Assembly (NCBI RefSeq): GCF_003019035.1
Contig: NZ_CP027447.1
Reading direction: 5' to 3' (one strand)
Source: Escherichia coli
GTDB lineage: Bacteria > Pseudomonadota > Gammaproteobacteria > Enterobacterales > Enterobacteriaceae
Length of the DNA stretch: 64,000 nt
The stretch's first letter is position 1. Each line of letters opens with the position of its first letter. Positions 251 through 28,236 of the stretch are shown here, in pieces. A program made the translations under genes and the position numbers. Below the pieces are notes generated by a model. The model had not been told where the DNA came from, ran no database searches, and saw nothing but the letters and a program-made list of their open reading frames with translations.

Positions 251-851
251 TTCGTTGTTACCACCATCAGCCAGCAATTTCATGCGTTGTGCCGAAGCCG
301 TCGGAACACGCATTACAGACATTCCGGTAGACCTCAACACGCTGTGGTCGCCGGACACCTGCCCGGTGCATCTGCTGCCTTATCTCGCCTGGGCGTTTTC
401 CGTTGACCGCTGGGATCGCAACTGGCCGGAAGAGACAAAGCGACAGGTGATTCGTGATGCATGGCTGATACACCGACACAAAGGGACCATCAGCGCACTG
501 CGAAGAGCCGTGGAGCCTCTCGGCTACCTGATTGAAGTAAAGGAGTGGTGGCAACTCAACGAGGAGCCGGGAACATTTCGCATTGTTGTCGGAGTACTTG
601 ATCAGGGCATCACCGATGAAATGTATCAGGAACTTGAGCGCCTTATTGCGGATGCAAAACCAGTAAGTCGCCATCTGACAGGGCTGGCGATCAGCCTGAG
701 TGTGAACGGAAAGATTTTCGTTGGTACGGGATGCTATCACGGCGATGCCCTGACGGTTTATCCCTACACCCCGGAGTCCATTATTGTCGAAGGGGATTAT
801 TTCCCTGCCCCGGCCATTCATTTAATTGATAATCTGAGAGTAAACGCATGA
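243..851 (+). CDS. P2-like baseplate/tail protein I
   Basis: ORF track 210..851 (GTG); more likely ATG at 243 (MSNSLLPP...). Lies between J and tail fibre H; stop overlaps H start (ATGA). Confidence 0.6.
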   Translation: MSNSLLPPSASNFMRCAEAVGTRITDIPVDLNTLWSPDTCPVHLLPYLAWAFSVDRWDRNWPEETKRQVIRDAWLIHRHKGTISALRRAVEPLGYLIEVKEWWQLNEEPGTFRIVVGVLDQGITDEMYQELERLIADAKPVSRHLTGLAISLSVNGKIFVGTGCYHGDALTVYPYTPESIIVEGDYFPAPAIHLIDNLRVNA

Positions 852-2353
852 CAGTGAAATACTACGCCATTCTGACTAATCAGGGCGCGGCACGACTGGC
901 TAACGCGACGATGCTCGGCAGTAAGCTGAATCTGACGCAAATGGCCGTTGGTGATGCAAATGGTGTGTTACCAACACCAGACCCTGCACAAACAAAACTG
1001 ATTAACCAGAAACGCATTGCACCGCTGAATCTTCTGAGTGTTGACCCTAACAATCAGAGCCAGATTATTGCGGAACAAATCATCCCTGAAAACGAGGGAG
1101 GATTCTGGATCCGTGAGATTGGTCTTTATGATGATGAAGGCGTACTTATTGCGGTGGCAAACTGCCCGGAAACGTACAAACCGCAGTTGCAGGAAGGCAG
1201 TGGACGCACCCAGACTATCCGCATGATTCTGGTTGTCACGAACACCGAAGCCATCACGCTGAAAATCGACCCGTCAGTGGTTCTGGCAACCCGCAAATAT
1301 GTGGATGATAAAATCTCAGAGCACGAACAGTCACGACGTCACCCGGACGCCTCGCTGACCGTAAAAGGTTTTACTCAGTTAAGCAGTGCAATTAACAGTG
1401 AATCAGAAACACTGGCCGCAACACCGAAAGCGGTTAAGGCTGCATATGACCTGGCTAACAGGAAATATACCGCCCAGAACGCCACCACTACACAAAAAGG
1501 GATTGTTCAGCTCAGTAGCGCCACGAACAGCACGTCTGAAACGCTGGCAGCGACACCAAAAGCTGTTAAGGCGGTAATGGATGAAACGAACAAGAAAGCA
1601 CCATTAAACAGCCCGGCACTGACCGGAACGCCAACAACACCAACAGCGCCACAGGGGACTAATAATACCCAGATCGCAAGCACGGCTTTCGTTATGGCTG
1701 CGATTGCCGCACTTGTAGATTCGTCCCCTGATGCACTGAACACGCTGAACGAACTGGCTGCGGCGCTGGGCAATGACCCGAACTTTGCGACTACCATGAC
1801 TAACGCGCTTGCGGGTAAGCAATCGAAGGATGCCACCCTGACGGCGCTGGCGGAGCTTGCTACATCAGCAGATAAACTCCCATATTTTACAGGGGCAGAT
1901 CGTGCCGCGTTAACCGCGTTGACAAGTGTTGGACGTGCCATTCTTGGTAAAACCAGCACTCAGGGAGTTCTTGATTACCTTGGTTTGGGGGAAGGCTCTG
2001 CGCTGCCCGTTGGTGTACCTGTTCCATGGCCCTCAGCCACACCGCCAACGGGGTGGCTAAAATGTAACGGAGCAGCATTTTCTTCTGAAAAATACCCCAA
2101 ACTGGCAAAGGCTTACCCAACGTTAAAATTACCGGATTTACGGGGTGAGTTTATCCGTGGCTGGGATGATGGGCGCGGGATTGATGCGGGACGTACCCTG
2201 CTTTCTGGGCAGGATGGTACAAGTTTTTCTCATTACGGAGGTAATTTCGACATTGGGTCTGGTCATTCAATCAATAACTATGACCAAATTGTTTCTAACC
2301 AACCAGGCTTTTCCCGTTTTTCATTTGCGGGCCTTCACGAGGTGATGGGTTAA
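848..2353 (+). CDS. Phage tail fibre protein (P2 gpH-like), constant N-terminal part fused to currently attached variable C-terminal cassette A
   Basis: 501-aa ORF with Ala/Thr-rich repeats typical of tail fibres; C-terminal region begins with the block LGLGEGSALPVGVPVPWPSATPPTGWLKCNGAAFSSEKYPKLAKAYPTLKLPDLRGEFIRGWDDGRG that recurs in five other cassettes. Confidence 0.8.
   Translation: MTVKYYAILTNQGAARLANATMLGSKLNLTQMAVGDANGVLPTPDPAQTKLINQKRIAPLNLLSVDPNNQSQIIAEQIIPENEGGFWIREIGLYDDEGVLIAVANCPETYKPQLQEGSGRTQTIRMILVVTNTEAITLKIDPSVVLATRKYVDDKISEHEQSRRHPDASLTVKGFTQLSSAINSESETLAATPKAVKAAYDLANRKYTAQNATTTQKGIVQLSSATNSTSETLAATPKAVKAVMDETNKKAPLNSPALTGTPTTPTAPQGTNNTQIASTAFVMAAIAALVDSSPDALNTLNELAAALGNDPNFATTMTNALAGKQSKDATLTALAELATSADKLPYFTGADRAALTALTSVGRAILGKTSTQGVLDYLGLGEGSALPVGVPVPWPSATPPTGWLKCNGAAFSSEKYPKLAKAYPTLKLPDLRGEFIRGWDDGRGIDAGRTLLSGQDGTSFSHYGGNFDIGSGHSINNYDQIVSNQPGFSRFSFAGLHEVMG
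1376..1573 (+). repeat. In-frame tandem 44-codon repeat inside the tail fibre gene (QLSSA-NS-SETLAATPKAVKA motif twice)
   Basis: Motif at 1376.. and again at 1508.. (132 nt apart) in the H reading frame. Confidence 0.6.
1968..1993. other. Invertase crossover site 1 (hix/gix/cix-like), + orientation, inside H at constant/variable junction
   Basis: Sequence ...ACC TT GGTTTGGGGGAAGG... (core TT ~1980-1981) repeated at five other places; resembles the AAACC-NN-GGTTT architecture of Hin/Gin/Cin/Pin sites. Confidence 0.6.
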
Positions 2354-2404
2354 TTATGTAACCATTCGTCCTCGTAATATTGCGTTTAATTACATCGTAA
2401 GGGC

Positions 2405-2430
2405 AGCATAAAAACGTTGGTTTGGGGAAG
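2405..2430. other. Invertase crossover site 2, + orientation (variant with GGGG instead of GGGGG)
   Basis: CATAAAAACG TT GGTTTGGGGAAGG at 2408-2430, immediately after the conserved cassette end RPRNIAFNYIVRAA-stop. Confidence 0.55.
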
Positions 2431-2897
2431 GCTCTGCGCTGCCCGTTGGTGTACCTGTTCCATGGCCCTTAGAAACACCGCCAACGGGGTGGCTAAAATG
2501 TAACGGAGCAGCATTTTCTTCTGAAAAGTACCCCAAGCTGGCAAAAGCCTACCCCACCAATAAATTACCGGATTTACGGGGTGAATTTATTCGTGGCTGG
2601 GATGATGGGCGAGGAATTGATGCAGCACGCGCTTTATTGAGCATTCAAACCGGGATGTTGGAAAAACACCGCCATATTGTTGTAGCTAACGATGGATATG
2701 ACACAAAGGATGAATGGGAGTTGGCCACGATTTTCAAAAAAACATATACACAAGGCAGGGGGCTTGATGCCACAAATACAGGAGGGAGTTTGATTCCATC
2801 ACCAACGCTTCATTCACGAGGAAGTATTGGTAACACAGGTGGTAGTGAAACCCGCCCCCGCAATATTGCATTTAACTATATCGTGAGGGCGGCTTAG
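2421..2897 (+). other. Promoterless tail-fibre C-terminal cassette B (silent, + orientation)
   Basis: Frame beginning FGEGSALPVGVPVPWPLETPPTGWLKCNGAAFSSEKYPKLAKAYPTNKLPDLRGEFIRGWDDGRG... ending ...ETRPRNIAFNYIVRAA-stop at 2897; no start codon at its 5' end (ORF track only picks internal Met at 2637). Confidence 0.6.
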
Positions 2898-2903
2898 TTA
2901 TAT

Positions 2904-3515
2904 TCAACTGGCTGCTGCCAGTGGTATTTCCGGCCAGTTGATATCTGATGCCATGTTTATATCCATTGCGTTCAGTGCGTCTATATAATCCAGCACGGCG
3001 TTAAGCCGGGTGGTTTCTGCCTGCGTCAACTTCCGCCCGGCCCGCAACTTCAACTGAATCAGACTAATGGAAGCCATTGCAGTATCAATCAGCGACTGGC
3101 GCTGTGTTTCTGCCGCTTCTACTGCGGCGCTATGCTGTGCCTCGGTATCCGTCACCCATTTTTCACCATCCCATTTATCGTATGGTGTTAACGGGGCGAT
3201 AGTGGTTGTATTTTTCGGGTAGTCACCCAGCGTCGTGATTTCTTCGGTGTTTCCCGTATCAGTGCTATAGACGGTTTCACCACGATGATCTGGCGTATAC
3301 TCCCATGAATTTAAATTCTCCGAACGGCGGATAGCATAGCCCGCTTTATGTGCGCCCGGGGCATCTAAACAGGAATTTGCCGGAATACCGACACCCGCAG
3401 CAAGATATTCAGTTGATTCGGAAATATATTCCCGTGTCTCACCATCATAGTTATAAACGACGATGTTTCCTGCCTGTACGGCAATAAGGTCATCATTTAA
3501 TATCGCGTTATTCAT
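2904..3515 (-). CDS. Tail fibre assembly protein (Tfa / P2 gpG-like chaperone)
   Basis: 203-aa ORF immediately downstream (minus strand) of cassette C with ATGA overlap; position and size as for tfa genes following tail fibre variable segments. Confidence 0.6.
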   Translation of the reverse strand: MNNAILNDDLIAVQAGNIVVYNYDGETREYISESTEYLAAGVGIPANSCLDAPGAHKAGYAIRRSENLNSWEYTPDHRGETVYSTDTGNTEEITTLGDYPKNTTTIAPLTPYDKWDGEKWVTDTEAQHSAAVEAAETQRQSLIDTAMASISLIQLKLRAGRKLTQAETTRLNAVLDYIDALNAMDINMASDINWPEIPLAAAS

Positions 3516-3973
3516 TATGCGGTTCTCACAATATAATTGAAGGCAATATTGCGTGGGCGGGTTTCATTCCCCTCTGAGGATTCCGTTCTGTATTGACTGG
3601 TAAATCTACCGTTAATTGCACCTTGCCGGACGGCGTTATCTGTCGACAACAGACTATCCCCTCCTTTGTCATTTGGCACCAGTACCGTGTTATCCCACGC
3701 ATCCCATGACCGAATATTATGATAATGACTTCCTGTTAACCACCCCTGCATGCTTAAGATGCCCCTTCCGGCATCCACCCCGCGCCCATCATCCCAGCCA
3801 CGAATAAATTCACCCCGTAAATCCGGTAATTTTAACGTTGGGTAAGCCTTTGCCAGTTTTGGATACTTTTCAGAAGAAAATGCTGCTCCGTTACATTTTA
3901 GCCACCCAGTTGGCGGCGTGGCTGAGGGCCATGGAACGGGCACACCAACGGGCAGCGCAGAGCCTTCCCCCAA
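3515..3973 (-). other. Tail-fibre C-terminal cassette C (silent, inverted), followed by tfa
   Basis: Begins with conserved GEGSALPVGVPVPWPSATPPTGWLKCNGAAF... block, ends ...ETRPRNIAFNYIVRTA; starts at crossover site, no ATG. Confidence 0.6.
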
Positions 3974-3990
3974 ACCAACGTTTTCATGCT
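3965..3990. other. Invertase crossover site 3, inverted orientation
   Basis: CCTTCCCCCAAACC AA CGTTTTCATG on + strand (reverse complement of site consensus). Confidence 0.55.
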
Positions 3991-4451
3991 GCCCTTACGA
4001 TGTAATTAAACGCAATGTTATGGGGGCGTGTTTCAGATGCTGTGCGAACTGAGCGAGAGGCGTCGAATGTCCATACAGAAGCACCATATCCTTCAATGAT
4101 CTCAGTTGGTTGTAAGCCTACTGATAATATAGAGTCAGTTTGACTAAATGGTCCTGAATTAAACGCATCTTTAAAAAGCTGAGTACGCCCAAAAGTGCCA
4201 ACTATATTCTGAATAGCGTCAGACTGTGCAGACAGTAGGTTGCGCCCATTATCAACGCCCCGTCCGTCATCCCAGCCGCGAATAAATTCGCCCCGTAAAT
4301 CCGGTAATTTATTGGTGGAGTAGGCCTTTGCCAGATTGGGGTACATTTCAGAAGAAAATGCTGCGCCGTTACATTTCAGCCACCCCGTTGGCGGCGTGGC
4401 TGAGGGCCATGGAACGGGCACACCAACGGGCAGCGCAGAGCCTTCCCCCAA
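3984..4451 (-). other. Tail-fibre C-terminal cassette D (silent, inverted)
   Basis: Same conserved N-terminal block and C-terminal ...ETRPHNIAFNYIVRAA; distinct variable middle. Confidence 0.6.
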
Positions 4452-4468
4452 ACCAACGTTTTTATGCC
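4443..4468. other. Invertase crossover site 4, inverted orientation
   Basis: CCTTCCCCCAAACC AA CGTTTTTATG on + strand. Confidence 0.55.
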
Positions 4469-4890
4469 GCCCTTACGATGTAATTAAATGCGATATTTCG
4501 CGGCCTGACAGCAACAAAATTTATACCATCACCTACAGAGTTACTGGTGAAATTAAATCGTGAAAATCCTGGCTGATTTCCGACGATGCCATCATGAAAA
4601 TTAATTGCGTGCCCCGCACCATCACCTATATTTCCGGCACGCTGAGAAAAATTTGTAGCCTCTTGGCTGCTTAATAATGCTCGCCCATTGTCCACACCTC
4701 GTCCATCATCCCAACCTCGAATAAATTCGCCCCGTAGATCCGGCAATTTATTGGTGGGGTAAACCTTTGCCAGATTTGGGTACTTTTCAGAAGAAAATGC
4801 TGCTCCGTTACATTTCAGCCACCCCGTTGGCGGTGTGGCTGAGGGCCATGGAACAGGTACACCAACGGGCAGCGCAGAGCCTTCCCCCAA
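4462..4890 (-). other. Tail-fibre C-terminal cassette E (silent, inverted)
   Basis: Conserved N block; variable part ...GHAINFHDGIVGNQPGFSRFNF... is paralogous to attached cassette A; ends ...RPRNIAFNYIVRAA. Confidence 0.6.
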
Positions 4891-4907
4891 ACCAACGTTT
4901 TCATGCG
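4882..4907. other. Invertase crossover site 5, inverted orientation
   Basis: CTTCCCCCAAACC AA CGTTTTCATG on + strand. Confidence 0.55.
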
Positions 4908-5410
4908 GCTCTTACGATGTAATTAAACGCAATGTTACGAGGACGGTTTTCGTTTGCAGTTGGAACAATTCTTGAAGCATCAAGGCCAATCACTTTTGGG
5001 TAAACAGCGCCATCTGTTCTTTCTGTCACCATACTTCTGACTAAGGAGAAATAACTATTGTTCGTTGAGGGGCTCAAAGGCACTACTGCCCCCTTAAACG
5101 AACCTACTGATTCCCATATTGAATAATTTTCGGTGTTTACAGTCTTGAACTCACCATAGATATTACGTATGGCATCGCCCTGAGCGGATAATATTGCCCT
5201 CCCCGTATCCATACCACGTCCGTCATCCCAGCCACGAATAAATTCACCCCGTAAATCCGGTAATTTTAACGTTGGGTAAGCCTTTGCCAGTTTTGGATAC
5301 TTTTCAGAAGAAAATGCTGCTCCGTTACATTTTAGCCACCCAGTTGGCGGCGTGGCTGAGGGCCACGGAACGGGCACACCAACGGGCAGTGCAGAGCCTT
5401 CCCCCAAACC
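4901..5410 (-). other. Tail-fibre C-terminal cassette F (silent, inverted)
   Basis: Conserved N block and ...NRPRNIAFNYIVRAA end; ORF track extends it to 5464 by 17 fortuitous codons outside the crossover site. Confidence 0.55.
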
Positions 5411-5424
5411 AACGTTTTCGTTTT
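5399..5424. other. Invertase crossover site 6, inverted orientation (right boundary of invertible region)
   Basis: CCTTCCCCCAAACC AA CGTTTTCG on + strand, ~55 bp upstream of the invertase start. Confidence 0.55.
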
Positions 5425-5478: not shown

Positions 5479-6078
5479 ATGCAAATTGGCTATATTCGTG
5501 TGTCAACAAATGACCAGAACACGGATTTACAACGCAATGCACTGAACTGCGCAGGATGTGAACTGATTTTTGAAGATAAAATCAGCGGAACGAAATCAGC
5601 CAGACCGGGATTGAAAAAACTGCTCAGAACGCTATCAGAAGGAGATACGCTGGTTGTCTGGAAGCTGGACAGACTGGGCAGAAGTATGAAACACCTGATT
5701 ACGCTTATTGAGGAATTGCGGGAAAAAGGTGTTAATTTCCGTAGTCTGACGGACAGCATTGACACATCAACACCCATGGGGCGTTTCTTTTTTCACGTCA
5801 TGGGGGCTTTAGCCGAAATGGAACGTGAATTAATTGTAGAGCGTACACTGGCCGGACTGGCAGCAGCACGCGCACAAGGACGCATTGGCGGACGTCGCCC
5901 GAAGTTGACAAAAGAACAACACGAGCAAATAGCGAGGCTGATTAAAAACGGTCATGACAGGAAACAACTGGCGATCATTTACGACATCGGCATATCGACG
6001 ATTTATCGTTATCACCCTGTAGGCGATATACAGGCTGAAGAAACAACCAGGCAGACTCAGGAAAATGAAAACCGCTAA
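5479..6078 (+). CDS. Serine DNA invertase (Hin/Gin/Cin/Pin family site-specific recombinase)
   Basis: MQIGYIRVSTNDQNTDLQRNAL... with catalytic-serine resolvase/invertase N-terminal domain and C-terminal HTH (GISTIYRY); SD AAGAGGA before ATG 5479. ORF-track N-terminal extension from 5272 is the reverse complement of cassette F. Confidence 0.9.
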   Translation: MQIGYIRVSTNDQNTDLQRNALNCAGCELIFEDKISGTKSARPGLKKLLRTLSEGDTLVVWKLDRLGRSMKHLITLIEELREKGVNFRSLTDSIDTSTPMGRFFFHVMGALAEMERELIVERTLAGLAAARAQGRIGGRRPKLTKEQHEQIARLIKNGHDRKQLAIIYDIGISTIYRYHPVGDIQAEETTRQTQENENR

Positions 6079-26234: not shown

Positions 26235-27593
26235 ATGATGAATATCCGCACGCTTAAGCTCACTAATCTGGGGCGGTTTGAAGAACTTGACGTTCATCTG
26301 GCTCCAGTGGAGGAGTTCAAGAGCAATGTGACCGTTTTTATTGGTAATAATGGTGCAGGTAAAACATCAATATTAAAATCGTTGGCAACCAGCCTGAGTT
26401 GGTTCGTTGCCCGAGTTCGTACTGAAAAAGGTAACGGTAGCCCTATTCCTGAAGACGCTATTCTGAACGGTAGGAGTTCGGCGACAATTGAACTTCAGGT
26501 ACTGAATACGCATCCAGCGACGGAGGTCGCTACGCCCTACCGTTGGTTGCTTGCCAGAACGGCCAGTGGGAAAAAATCGACCACCGCCTCCAGCCTGCAA
26601 GAGGCCAGCCAATTGGCTGCGTTTTATCGAGATCAATACACCCAGAATAGCGGGGCATCCTTCCCGCTTATCGCCTTCTATCCCGTAGAACGTGTCGTGC
26701 TGGATGTGCCGTTGAAAATAAAAGAACGTCATAATTTTTTGCAACTGGATGGCTACGATAACGCCCTGAATCAGGGTATTGATTTCCGCCGTTTCTTTGA
26801 GTGGTTTCGCAATCGCGAAGATGCAGAAAATGAATCGGGCTTACCGCAAGACGTTCTGGATAAGCTCAGTACCAGGATAGATCTCGATAACGCCGTCTTA
26901 AATGCATTAACGGCAATCATGGCCTCGTCCCGGGATCGCCAGTTGACCGCCGTCAGAACGGCCATTAGTCGCTTTATGCCAGGGTTCAGCAACTTACGCG
27001 TCAGGCGTAAACCTCGCCTGCATATGTCGATAGATAAAAATGGCCAGACACTGAATGTGCTGCAATTATCGCAGGGTGAAAAATCACTGATGGCGTTAGT
27101 CGGCGATATTGCTCGCCGCCTGGCAATGATGAACCCGATGTTAGAAAACCCGCTAAACGGCGAGGGAATTGTATTAATTGATGAAGTGGACATGCACCTG
27201 CATCCAACATGGCAGCGTACAATCATCCAGCGTCTGACGACAACATTCCCACATTGCCAGTTTGTCTTAACAACCCACTCTCCTTTAGTGATCAGTGATT
27301 GCAAAGATGTGCTGGTTTATTCTCTGGATGATGGCGAATTAACGCAGCTCCCGTCTCTGTATGGGCAAGATGCGAATACTGTGCTTTTGAATGTGATGGA
27401 TACGGATATTCGCAATGCGACAGTGGCAGAAAAACTTAACGATCTTTTGGATCTGATTCAGAAAAACGACTTTATCAACGCTAACGCTCTTCTGAATACG
27501 CTAAGCCTGGAACTTCCTGAAAACCATCTTGAACTGGTGAAAGCCAGAATGCTTCTGCGCAAACAGGAAATTAAACATGCGCGAAATAACTAA
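26235..27593 (+). CDS. ABC-type (AAA_15/AAA_21-like) ATPase, Septu PtuA-like candidate
   Basis: Walker A GNNGAGKTS, signature-like LSQGEKS, Walker B VLIDEVDMHLHP, H-loop TTHSP; RecF/SMC-type N-terminal beta-strand (IRTLKLTNLGRFEEL). Confidence 0.75.
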   Translation: MMNIRTLKLTNLGRFEELDVHLAPVEEFKSNVTVFIGNNGAGKTSILKSLATSLSWFVARVRTEKGNGSPIPEDAILNGRSSATIELQVLNTHPATEVATPYRWLLARTASGKKSTTASSLQEASQLAAFYRDQYTQNSGASFPLIAFYPVERVVLDVPLKIKERHNFLQLDGYDNALNQGIDFRRFFEWFRNREDAENESGLPQDVLDKLSTRIDLDNAVLNALTAIMASSRDRQLTAVRTAISRFMPGFSNLRVRRKPRLHMSIDKNGQTLNVLQLSQGEKSLMALVGDIARRLAMMNPMLENPLNGEGIVLIDEVDMHLHPTWQRTIIQRLTTTFPHCQFVLTTHSPLVISDCKDVLVYSLDDGELTQLPSLYGQDANTVLLNVMDTDIRNATVAEKLNDLLDLIQKNDFINANALLNTLSLELPENHLELVKARMLLRKQEIKHARNN

Positions 27594-28236
27594 AGGGCAA
27601 CCGCCGGCCAGTTTGCAACAGTGGGTGAGAGCAAAACCACGGGATAAAAATGCCAATCAGTGGTTTCAGGAACTTTATGCGCAAAAAAAATGGGATATCG
27701 TTGGCGATCTCAGCCAGCAGTGCGCTCAGGAGCAATTTTATCTCTGTGCTTATTGCTGCGATCGCGTGACAGGTACAAACCGCGATACCGTTAATGAACA
27801 TGTCGAAGCCAGGGATTTAGCCCCTGCTCGCAGTCTGGAATTCACCAATATCGTTGCAAGCTGCAAAACAAAAGGCCAGTGTGACGACTCGCATAAGAAC
27901 CAGCCATTGCTGTTAACGCCGCTTATGCCGGAATGTGAAACCGAGTTTATCTTCAAGATCAGTGGTCGAATTGAAGGGACGACGCCGAAAGCTATCGATG
28001 CGATTAAGGTACTCAACCTTGGCGATAGTGAACGTAATAATCGGGCATTGATTGAAAAACGTAAGCAGCTTTCCGACAGCCTTCTGTGGGCTAATGGCAT
28101 TGACCCTTCAGAGGGGCTTGAGGATGACGACCTGCTGCAAGCGGTTATCGACGAATTACTCACCCCCGTCGACGGTTATCTGGCACCTTTCGCTCCCGTG
28201 GTGGCGAATATTCTAAAAAACTGGATGACCGCATGA
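27577..28236 (+). CDS. HNH-family nuclease, Septu PtuB-like candidate
   Basis: ATG overlaps the ATPase 3' end by 17 nt; CAYCC...NEHVEAR...N...C-x5-C..H arrangement consistent with HNH zinc-ribbon nuclease. Confidence 0.65.
   Translation: MREITKGQPPASLQQWVRAKPRDKNANQWFQELYAQKKWDIVGDLSQQCAQEQFYLCAYCCDRVTGTNRDTVNEHVEARDLAPARSLEFTNIVASCKTKGQCDDSHKNQPLLLTPLMPECETEFIFKISGRIEGTTPKAIDAIKVLNLGDSERNNRALIEKRKQLSDSLLWANGIDPSEGLEDDDLLQAVIDELLTPVDGYLAPFAPVVANILKNWMTA

Follow-up and report, generated by a model that had tools for sequence, protein, structure and literature searches.

Does a tail-fibre locus that exchanges its receptor-binding ends by DNA inversion also carry a second switch, written into short runs of G, or do the frame losses found in it have a more ordinary origin? 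The question is raised by a P2-like prophage at one end of the 64,000-nt stretch of Escherichia coli DNA analysed here (the window), in which the cassette attached to the tail-fibre gene is frameshifted near its C-terminus and a neighbouring silent cassette has a crossover junction that is one G short. In a preliminary description, both features were read as cassette decay or as phase variation through homopolymer slippage, adding a further layer of switching on top of inversion. Real, programmed deletions would indeed give host-range switching of the tail fibre a slippage-based second layer; the evidence collected below argues against this. From comparison with other copies of the locus, we consider it probable (at about 80%) that the frame losses stem from three consensus under-calls in a population-heterogeneous, repeat-rich inversion locus of the Gin/Min type. 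On this reading there is no second switching layer, and both cassettes are intact in the real phage.

A six-cassette inversion locus

The locus is of a type already known: a multiple-inversion switch of the Gin/Cin/Min class residing in a P2-like prophage (Table 1). Its invertase combines an N-terminal catalytic domain with a C-terminal HTH (Pfam Resolvase, 1.5e-51; HTH_7, 1.4e-12), and the nearest solved structures are those of Mu Gin (3uj3 and 4m6f; E ~1e-91 over residues 1-185). The frames of all six cassettes, A to F, start GEGSALPVGVPVPWP... and belong to the Pfam Collar domain, and the cassette 3′ ends read RPRNIAFNYIVRAA save for single substitutions in C (RTA) and D (RPH).

Table 1 Features of the inversion locus and positions of the three shortened G-runs (window coordinates)
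Feature	Position	Strand	Remarks
P2-like prophage late region	1 to ~14,880		Insertion adjoins flk/yfcJ/fabB
Hc, constant N-terminal part of P2 gpH-type tail-fibre gene	848..1979	+	Pfam Phage_tail_fib, Phage_fiber_2
H ORF as deposited	848..2353	+	From ORF list; ends ...NQPGFSRFSFAGLHEVMG-TAA, stop 2351-2353
Crossover site 1	1968..1993	+	TTCTTGATTACC-TT-GGTTTGGGGGAA; five G's; putative 2-bp core 1980-1981
Cassette A, fused to Hc at present	1982..2411	+	Pfam Collar domain
Deletion 1	run now 2329-2331	+	GC[G/A]GGG to GCGGG; GGGG or AGGG in all orthologues
Deletion 2	run now 2347-2349	+	GATGGGG to GATGGG; GGGG in 14/14 orthologues examined and in L063-L069
Crossover site 2, direct repeat of site 1	2405..2430	+	Core TT 2417-2418; four G's at 2424-2427
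Cassette B, silent	2419..2897	+	156-codon frame intact from GAA at 2427
Deletion 3	run now 2424-2427, in site 2	+	G5 to G4; G5 in all other copies
Tail-fibre assembly gene tfa (Caudo_TAP)	2904..3515	-	Sole copy, downstream of cassette C
Cassette C	3515-3976; 3515..3990 with crossover site 3	-	152 aa, intact; site 3 with five G's
Cassette D	3984-4454; 3984..4468 with crossover site 4	-	155 aa, intact; site 4 with five G's
Cassette E, paralogue of A	4462-4893; ORF 4462..4890; 4462..4907 with crossover site 5	-	142 aa, intact; site 5 with five G's
Cassette F	4901-5410; 4901..5424 with crossover site 6	-	~168 aa, intact; site 6 with five G's
Gin/Hin-family serine DNA invertase	5479..6078	+	199 aa; adjoins site 6

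In the window, TTGGTTTGGGG(G)AAGGCTCTGC occurs six times, twice on the plus strand and four times on the minus strand. After site 1, the core sequence recurs once in the same orientation, at 2417, and four times in the opposite orientation (ends at 3978, 4456, 4895 and 5412), so arranged that short conserved sites in both orientations flank invertible segments, as in the Gin/Hin/Cin/Min (Din) systems. We assigned the 12+2+12 dyad and the position of its 2-bp core on the assumption that these sites share the architecture of the Hin/Gin family. Because cleavage falls at the central 2 bp of the 12+2+12 site under the family rule, the G tract would be expected to move with cassette B and not with Hc; the natural isomers do not fix the crossover point relative to the tract, since all sites share the same 22 bp about the core.

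A single serine invertase would act on the six crossover sites, and any of six C-terminal receptor-binding cassettes (A-F) could be fused to one Hc. The identical prophage is found in eight assemblies, the window and seven others (L063-L069), in eight different cassette orders, all of them legal inversion products: A+ B+ tfa- C- D- E- F- in the window, A+ D+ C+ tfa+ B- E- F- in L063, A+ F+ B+ tfa- C- D- E- in L064, and five more, each different, in L065-L069. Exchange of the tail-fibre C-terminus is thus seen in the orders of these eight assemblies and in the experiment on the orthologous locus of strain E2348/69 (see below). With eight natural isomers documented, the locus is a clear six-cassette example of the known Gin/Min-type tail-fibre shufflon.

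Three single-G losses private to one assembly

In the deposited sequence the frame losses are as the preliminary description had them. H runs in frame 2 to its premature stop, while the conserved end RPRNIAFNYIVRAA-TAA is still encoded at 2367..2411 in frame 0, and the paralogous cassette E reads NQPGFSRFNF...RPRNIAFNYIVRAA in a single frame. Five of the six crossover sites read GGTTTGGGGGAAGG; site 2 (2419-2431) reads GGTTTGGGGAAGG, with four G's, and the frame of cassette B is shifted relative to Hc by this one-G-shorter junction.

Alignment of the window with its orthologues resolves these changes into three G-runs within 100 bp, each one G short (Table 1). The defect in cassette A is therein not one lesion but two separate 1-nt losses, 18 nt apart, and deletions 1 and 2 truncate the H-cassette A product after ...FSFAGLHEVMG. 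Deletion 3 breaks the frame between Hc and cassette B: when the two were joined in silico at the TT core, the product ran ...LGLGKALRCPLVYLFHGP-stop, ending after 18 codons, and the addition of one G at the join brought back the full 156-aa cassette B. The shortened forms are GCGGGCC for deletion 1, GATGGGTT for deletion 2 and TTTGGGGAAGG for deletion 3, and the two states of each can be told apart by k-mer pairs (TTTGCGGGCCTTC vs TTTGCGGGGCCTTC for deletion 1, GTGATGGGTTAAT vs GTGATGGGGTTAAT for deletion 2, and GGTTTGGGGAAGGC vs GGTTTGGGGGAAGGC for deletion 3, where the tract occurs at six sites and the cassette A end, ...GGCAGCATAAAAACG, marks site 2).

Comparison with related prophages, which the preliminary description had proposed as a check, gave a uniform result. 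In the seven other assemblies, the same prophage shows 0-1 substitutions per segment over ~5.4 kb, and all seven carry the longer G-runs and intact cassettes A and B. Hc (1,981 nt) is 100% identical to its counterparts in L063-L067 and L069, one locus having 1 SNP; nearly all seven match tfa and cassette E at 100% identity; and cassettes C, D and F differ by 0-1 SNP. Against L063-L068, cassette A (437 nt) aligns with 0 mismatches and 2 gaps, and cassette B (485 nt) with 0 mismatches and 1 gap. When the two missing G's are put back, H becomes a 521-aa protein with an exact match on record in at least 10 contigs; for the 501-aa truncated product, no exact-protein record was found.

Wider searches likewise place the deletions in this assembly only. 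Among 5,426 complete E. coli genomes (short megablast), the A-tail stretch had no gap-free match (0/5,426; best identity 97.6%), and the site-2 stretch likewise had none, nor any at ≥99% identity (best 97.0%). The full-length A-tail matches at the top of the listing were each 2 nt longer than the query, and the full-length matches listed for cassette B plus its site were nearly all 1 nt longer, the exceptions being three error-laden loci (L004-L006). Tracts of three or four G's are few in complete E. coli genomes and lie in error-laden loci. The deletion-2 sequence was absent from GTDB representative genomes in a sequence scan, and none of the three deletions was found in any relative. Decay would be expected to leave linked substitutions and/or to be inherited by related genomes, and neither is present: relative to the other prophage copies, A and B show G losses but not one substitution, a pattern that speaks against gradual decay.

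The losses are also tightly clustered. Within 2146-2485, every G/C run of at least 4 is shortened (3/3, consecutive), as against 0 of ~234 other such runs in the 57.5 kb covered by a reference at ≥99.9% identity; by our own estimate, three random events would fall on consecutive runs with P ~1e-4. On the host side of the prophage (14,884-64,000; 49,117 bp), comparison of the window with E. coli SCU-301 yields 2 SNPs and one A8/A7 indel. SCU-301 is 99.994% identical over this host part but carries no such prophage, and is therefore not comparable at the locus itself. Since the assembly is otherwise clean against SCU-301, the problem appears to be local, in the invertible repeat region.

Origin of the deletions

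How could consensus building or polishing have produced single-G under-calls in three neighbouring G-runs? Because eight assemblies show eight orders of the identical prophage, a culture of such a lysogen would be expected to be a mixture of inversion isomers, and the cassette ends are near-identical. Isomer mixture and near-identical cassette-end repeats together would defeat consensus polishing: reads at the junction of the A end, site 2 and the B start would disagree or map ambiguously, and homopolymer deletions of the long-read type could be left uncorrected there. The form of the changes is consistent with this origin. They are G-run deletions only, with no linked substitutions, all three are private to one assembly, and they lie in an invertible region with six repeats. 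The same class of error is present in a second assembly, the complete genome of 14EC047 (L004), where 17 single-base deletions, all in G/C runs, all fall inside the invertible region (3057-4877), two of them constituting 4-G crossover sites; its flanks (3 kb and 2 kb) contain no such deletions. More generally, the short tracts in public 'complete' genomes (L004-L006) are accompanied by nearby one-base deletions, the best references for the indel scan of L005 and L006 being diverged paralogues. Residual errors after hybrid assembly and polishing are acknowledged by the authors of the SCU genomes, a sister strain collection (PMC7407071).

Some features of the locus sit against an artefact. Deletions 1 and 2 lie in a genome-unique part of cassette A, where short-read polishing normally corrects; the other four cassettes, five sites and tfa are error-free, confining the putative bad patch to just ~100-330 bp; and frameshifted cassettes are annotated in other genomes too, real null cassettes being possible in general.

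It is unlikely, in our judgement, that the three deletions are instead real, very recent and private to this lysogen. The phage would then make an A fibre that has lost its last ~20 residues and gained a 7-residue out-of-frame tail, would never have B in frame and would rely on C-F; A and B would be null cassettes. The deposited sequence encodes exactly these products, a silent or lysogen-dispensable prophage cassette would be under weak selection, and pseudogenised cassettes have been annotated elsewhere. Yet such a history demands three independent -1 events in adjacent short G-runs, in a prophage free of substitutions over ~5.4 kb and beside 49 kb of host sequence that has only 2 SNPs relative to SCU-301. 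Nor do the host differences bear a mutator signature (both SNPs are transversions, and the sole indel lies in a long run), none of the deletions is common to any relative, and, because one frameshift already inactivates A, the second cannot be explained by selection.

Two further causes were considered and rejected. A mutator background would be at odds with so few changes in the host DNA (2 transversions and one indel over 49 kb), and gene conversion from paralogue E is contradicted by the many substitutions that separate A from E, whereas against orthologous A it shows only gaps.

A scar from a single event, in which error-prone repair synthesis followed aborted invertase cleavage at site 2 (for instance with -1 frameshifts of the Pol IV type), seems very improbable. 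The idea would account for the clustering without substitutions in one step: all lesions lie within ~90 bp either side of the site 2 core, and each is a -1 change in a G-run, the known frameshift signature of Pol IV. It is purely speculative, however, and serine invertases recombine conservatively, with no DNA synthesis; three frameshifts per 100 nt would demand extraordinarily low fidelity; other copies of the locus in short-read data carry no such scars; and the 14EC047 pattern, which spans 1.8 kb and 17 runs, looks technical. Were it true, serine-invertase sites would be local frameshift hotspots able to silence cassettes permanently.

The proposal of slippage was addressed by a survey of tract length, as the preliminary description had itself suggested. 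The junction tract consists of five purines in 196/196 metagenome sites (on contigs that are presumably mostly short-read-derived), and 215 of the 216 sites counted in viral contigs and in reference loci not picked for shortness likewise have length 5. A +1 variant was seen at none of the surveyed sites. Among viral contigs, four G's occur at one site only (L007); the cassette that follows it is interrupted by internal stops, and the case holds no general lesson. The natural tract variants GGGGG, AGGGG, AGGAG and GGGAG are synonymous, encoding Leu-Gly (TTR-GGR); they keep the length of 5, and the run is often broken. Both A-tail runs are invariant in 14/14 orthologues. Homopolymer tracts that mediate phase variation are typically ≥7 nt, and G3-G5 fall well under useful slippage lengths; the tracts here are G3, G3 and G4, and those of relatives G4, G4 and G5. 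Length polymorphism in both directions, as expected of a slippage locus, was not found among the surveyed metagenome, viral and reference sites.

We therefore give next to no credence to the suggestion that the G-tracts are contingency loci at which slipped-strand mispairing toggles single cassettes atop inversion: it is true that each of the changes alters the length of a homopolymer and toggles a frame, but the tracts fall short of the typical length, that length is invariant across the sites counted above, the changes are all -1 and never +1, synonymous variants interrupt the run at constant length (the opposite of selection for slippage), and the A-tail runs are just ordinary codons (GCG GGG CCT and GAT GGG GTT).

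Thus, of the earlier interpretation, the loss of frame in the deposited sequence stands, and neither gradual decay nor slippage switching is supported; a second switch layer atop inversion is left without support, and cassettes A and B are probably intact in the real phage. A sequencing artefact, the outcome that the preliminary description had named as its own refutation, is what the comparative evidence favours. For data quality, consensus error at this locus would carry a general lesson: invertible, repeat-rich phage loci in 'complete' assemblies can gather homopolymer under-calls that resemble pseudogenes or contingency loci, and frameshifts at such loci call for read support before they are interpreted.

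Comparison with known systems

As in slipped-strand (simple-sequence-repeat) phase variation, a change in homopolymer length shifts the frame at this locus; unlike in such systems, the tracts in the window are far too short, and hundreds of sites show no length polymorphism. Like the changes in the window, long-read and hybrid homopolymer consensus errors are single-base deletions in G/C runs, found in one assembly only and clustered where reads are heterogeneous or repeats hinder polishing, although only three runs are affected in the window.

As an inversion system, the locus is orthologous to the three-site 'shufflon' in a P2-like prophage of EPEC E2348/69 (L002), for which sequencing and PCR revealed co-existing isomers (Goldberg et al. 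2014, PMC4272514). The two share orthologous Hc-A, B, tfa(-), C(-) and invertase as well as the same crossover sequence, and the E2348/69 cassette A, 97.5% identical to that of the window, is intact. They differ in that E2348/69 has three sites, against six sites and six cassettes in the window, and in that the three G deletions of the window are missing from it.

The Min system of p15B (with Cin of P1, Gin of Mu and Pin of e14 in the Din family) offers the other close parallel: a Gin-like serine invertase of ~200 aa adjoins invertible DNA, with six crossover sites and alternative tail-fibre C-termini on one constant gene. The cassettes themselves are shared with P1/p15B-like phage-plasmids, 227 of 811 matching places being on plasmids (L005 and L006 are examples). 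Unlike p15B Min, the system in the window resides in a P2-like prophage and is fused to a gpH-type fibre, its cassettes, each a Collar-domain module, are short (142-168 aa), and one assembly-chaperone gene, co-oriented with H in some isomers only, serves all of them.

Cassette orders and the assembly gene

The identical prophage in eight assemblies (window 1968-5424 and the seven other assemblies, L063-L069) carries its tail-fibre cassettes in eight distinct orders, all of which (8/8) follow a common rule: a run of plus-strand cassettes, then a unit composed of B on the plus strand followed by tfa and C on the minus strand, or the inverse of this unit, and finally a run of minus-strand cassettes. 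Together, these naturally occurring orders capture a six-site shufflon in action. A single tail-fibre assembly (chaperone) gene is present for all six cassettes. For the A-H fusion, this gene lies on the same strand as H in only three of the eight isomers, and in the window isomer it occupies the opposite strand. Chaperone supply to the remaining cassettes may come from a promoter of its own, or none may be required.

Coordinates and strands of the features discussed in this part
Feature	Sequence	Position	Strand	Remarks
Tail-fibre assembly (chaperone) gene	window	2904-3515	-	downstream of C
Prophage/host junction	window	~14,884		
Two-gene Septu anti-phage system	window	26235-28236	+	between smrB and yfc fimbrial operon
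Sole 4-G site among viral contigs	L007 (IMGVR_UViG_2897358383_000001)	950-1445	-	

Purine tracts and deletions at other loci

Across the crossover sites of loci L001, L003 and L006 and of metagenome loci, the purine tract reads GGGGG, AGGGG, AGGAG or GGGAG, and rarely other variants, each of them 5 nt long and synonymous, with Leu-Gly coding kept. Since the tract varies in this way among loci, the invertase must tolerate such substitutions in one half-site. The four-G site of the viral contig heads a cassette with internal stop codons, reflecting either genuine degradation or one more poor assembly. In the public complete genome of E. coli 14EC047 (L004, NZ_CP024155.1), 17 one-base deletions fall within 3057-4877, each in a G/C run and each within the invertible tail-fibre region, where most cassettes carry frameshifted annotation; these deletions are likely a consensus artefact.

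Host background

The host DNA of the window is 99.994% identical to that of E. coli SCU-301 (NZ_CP051751.1; phylogroup F, ST967), which is without the prophage and in which flk directly adjoins pdxB. The existence of so near-identical a genome lacking the prophage means that its gain or loss in the window's lineage was very recent. Across 49 kb, the sole indel relative to SCU-301 is A8 versus A7 at window 35056; this position is intergenic, between sixA and the fimbrial operon. The Septu genes match PtuA (3.6e-168) and PtuB (2.2e-94) in PADLOC.

Related cassettes on P1-like phage-plasmids

The same Collar-domain cassette family, together with its crossover sites, is found on the P1-like phage-plasmids pB19429_2 (L005) and p19AR0253C (L006). 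P1/p15B-like plasmids with these cassettes carry up to 9 crossover sites each and also encode a Cin/Min-type recombinase, and this joint occurrence of family and sites indicates that P2-like prophages have cassettes in common with P1-like phage-plasmids.
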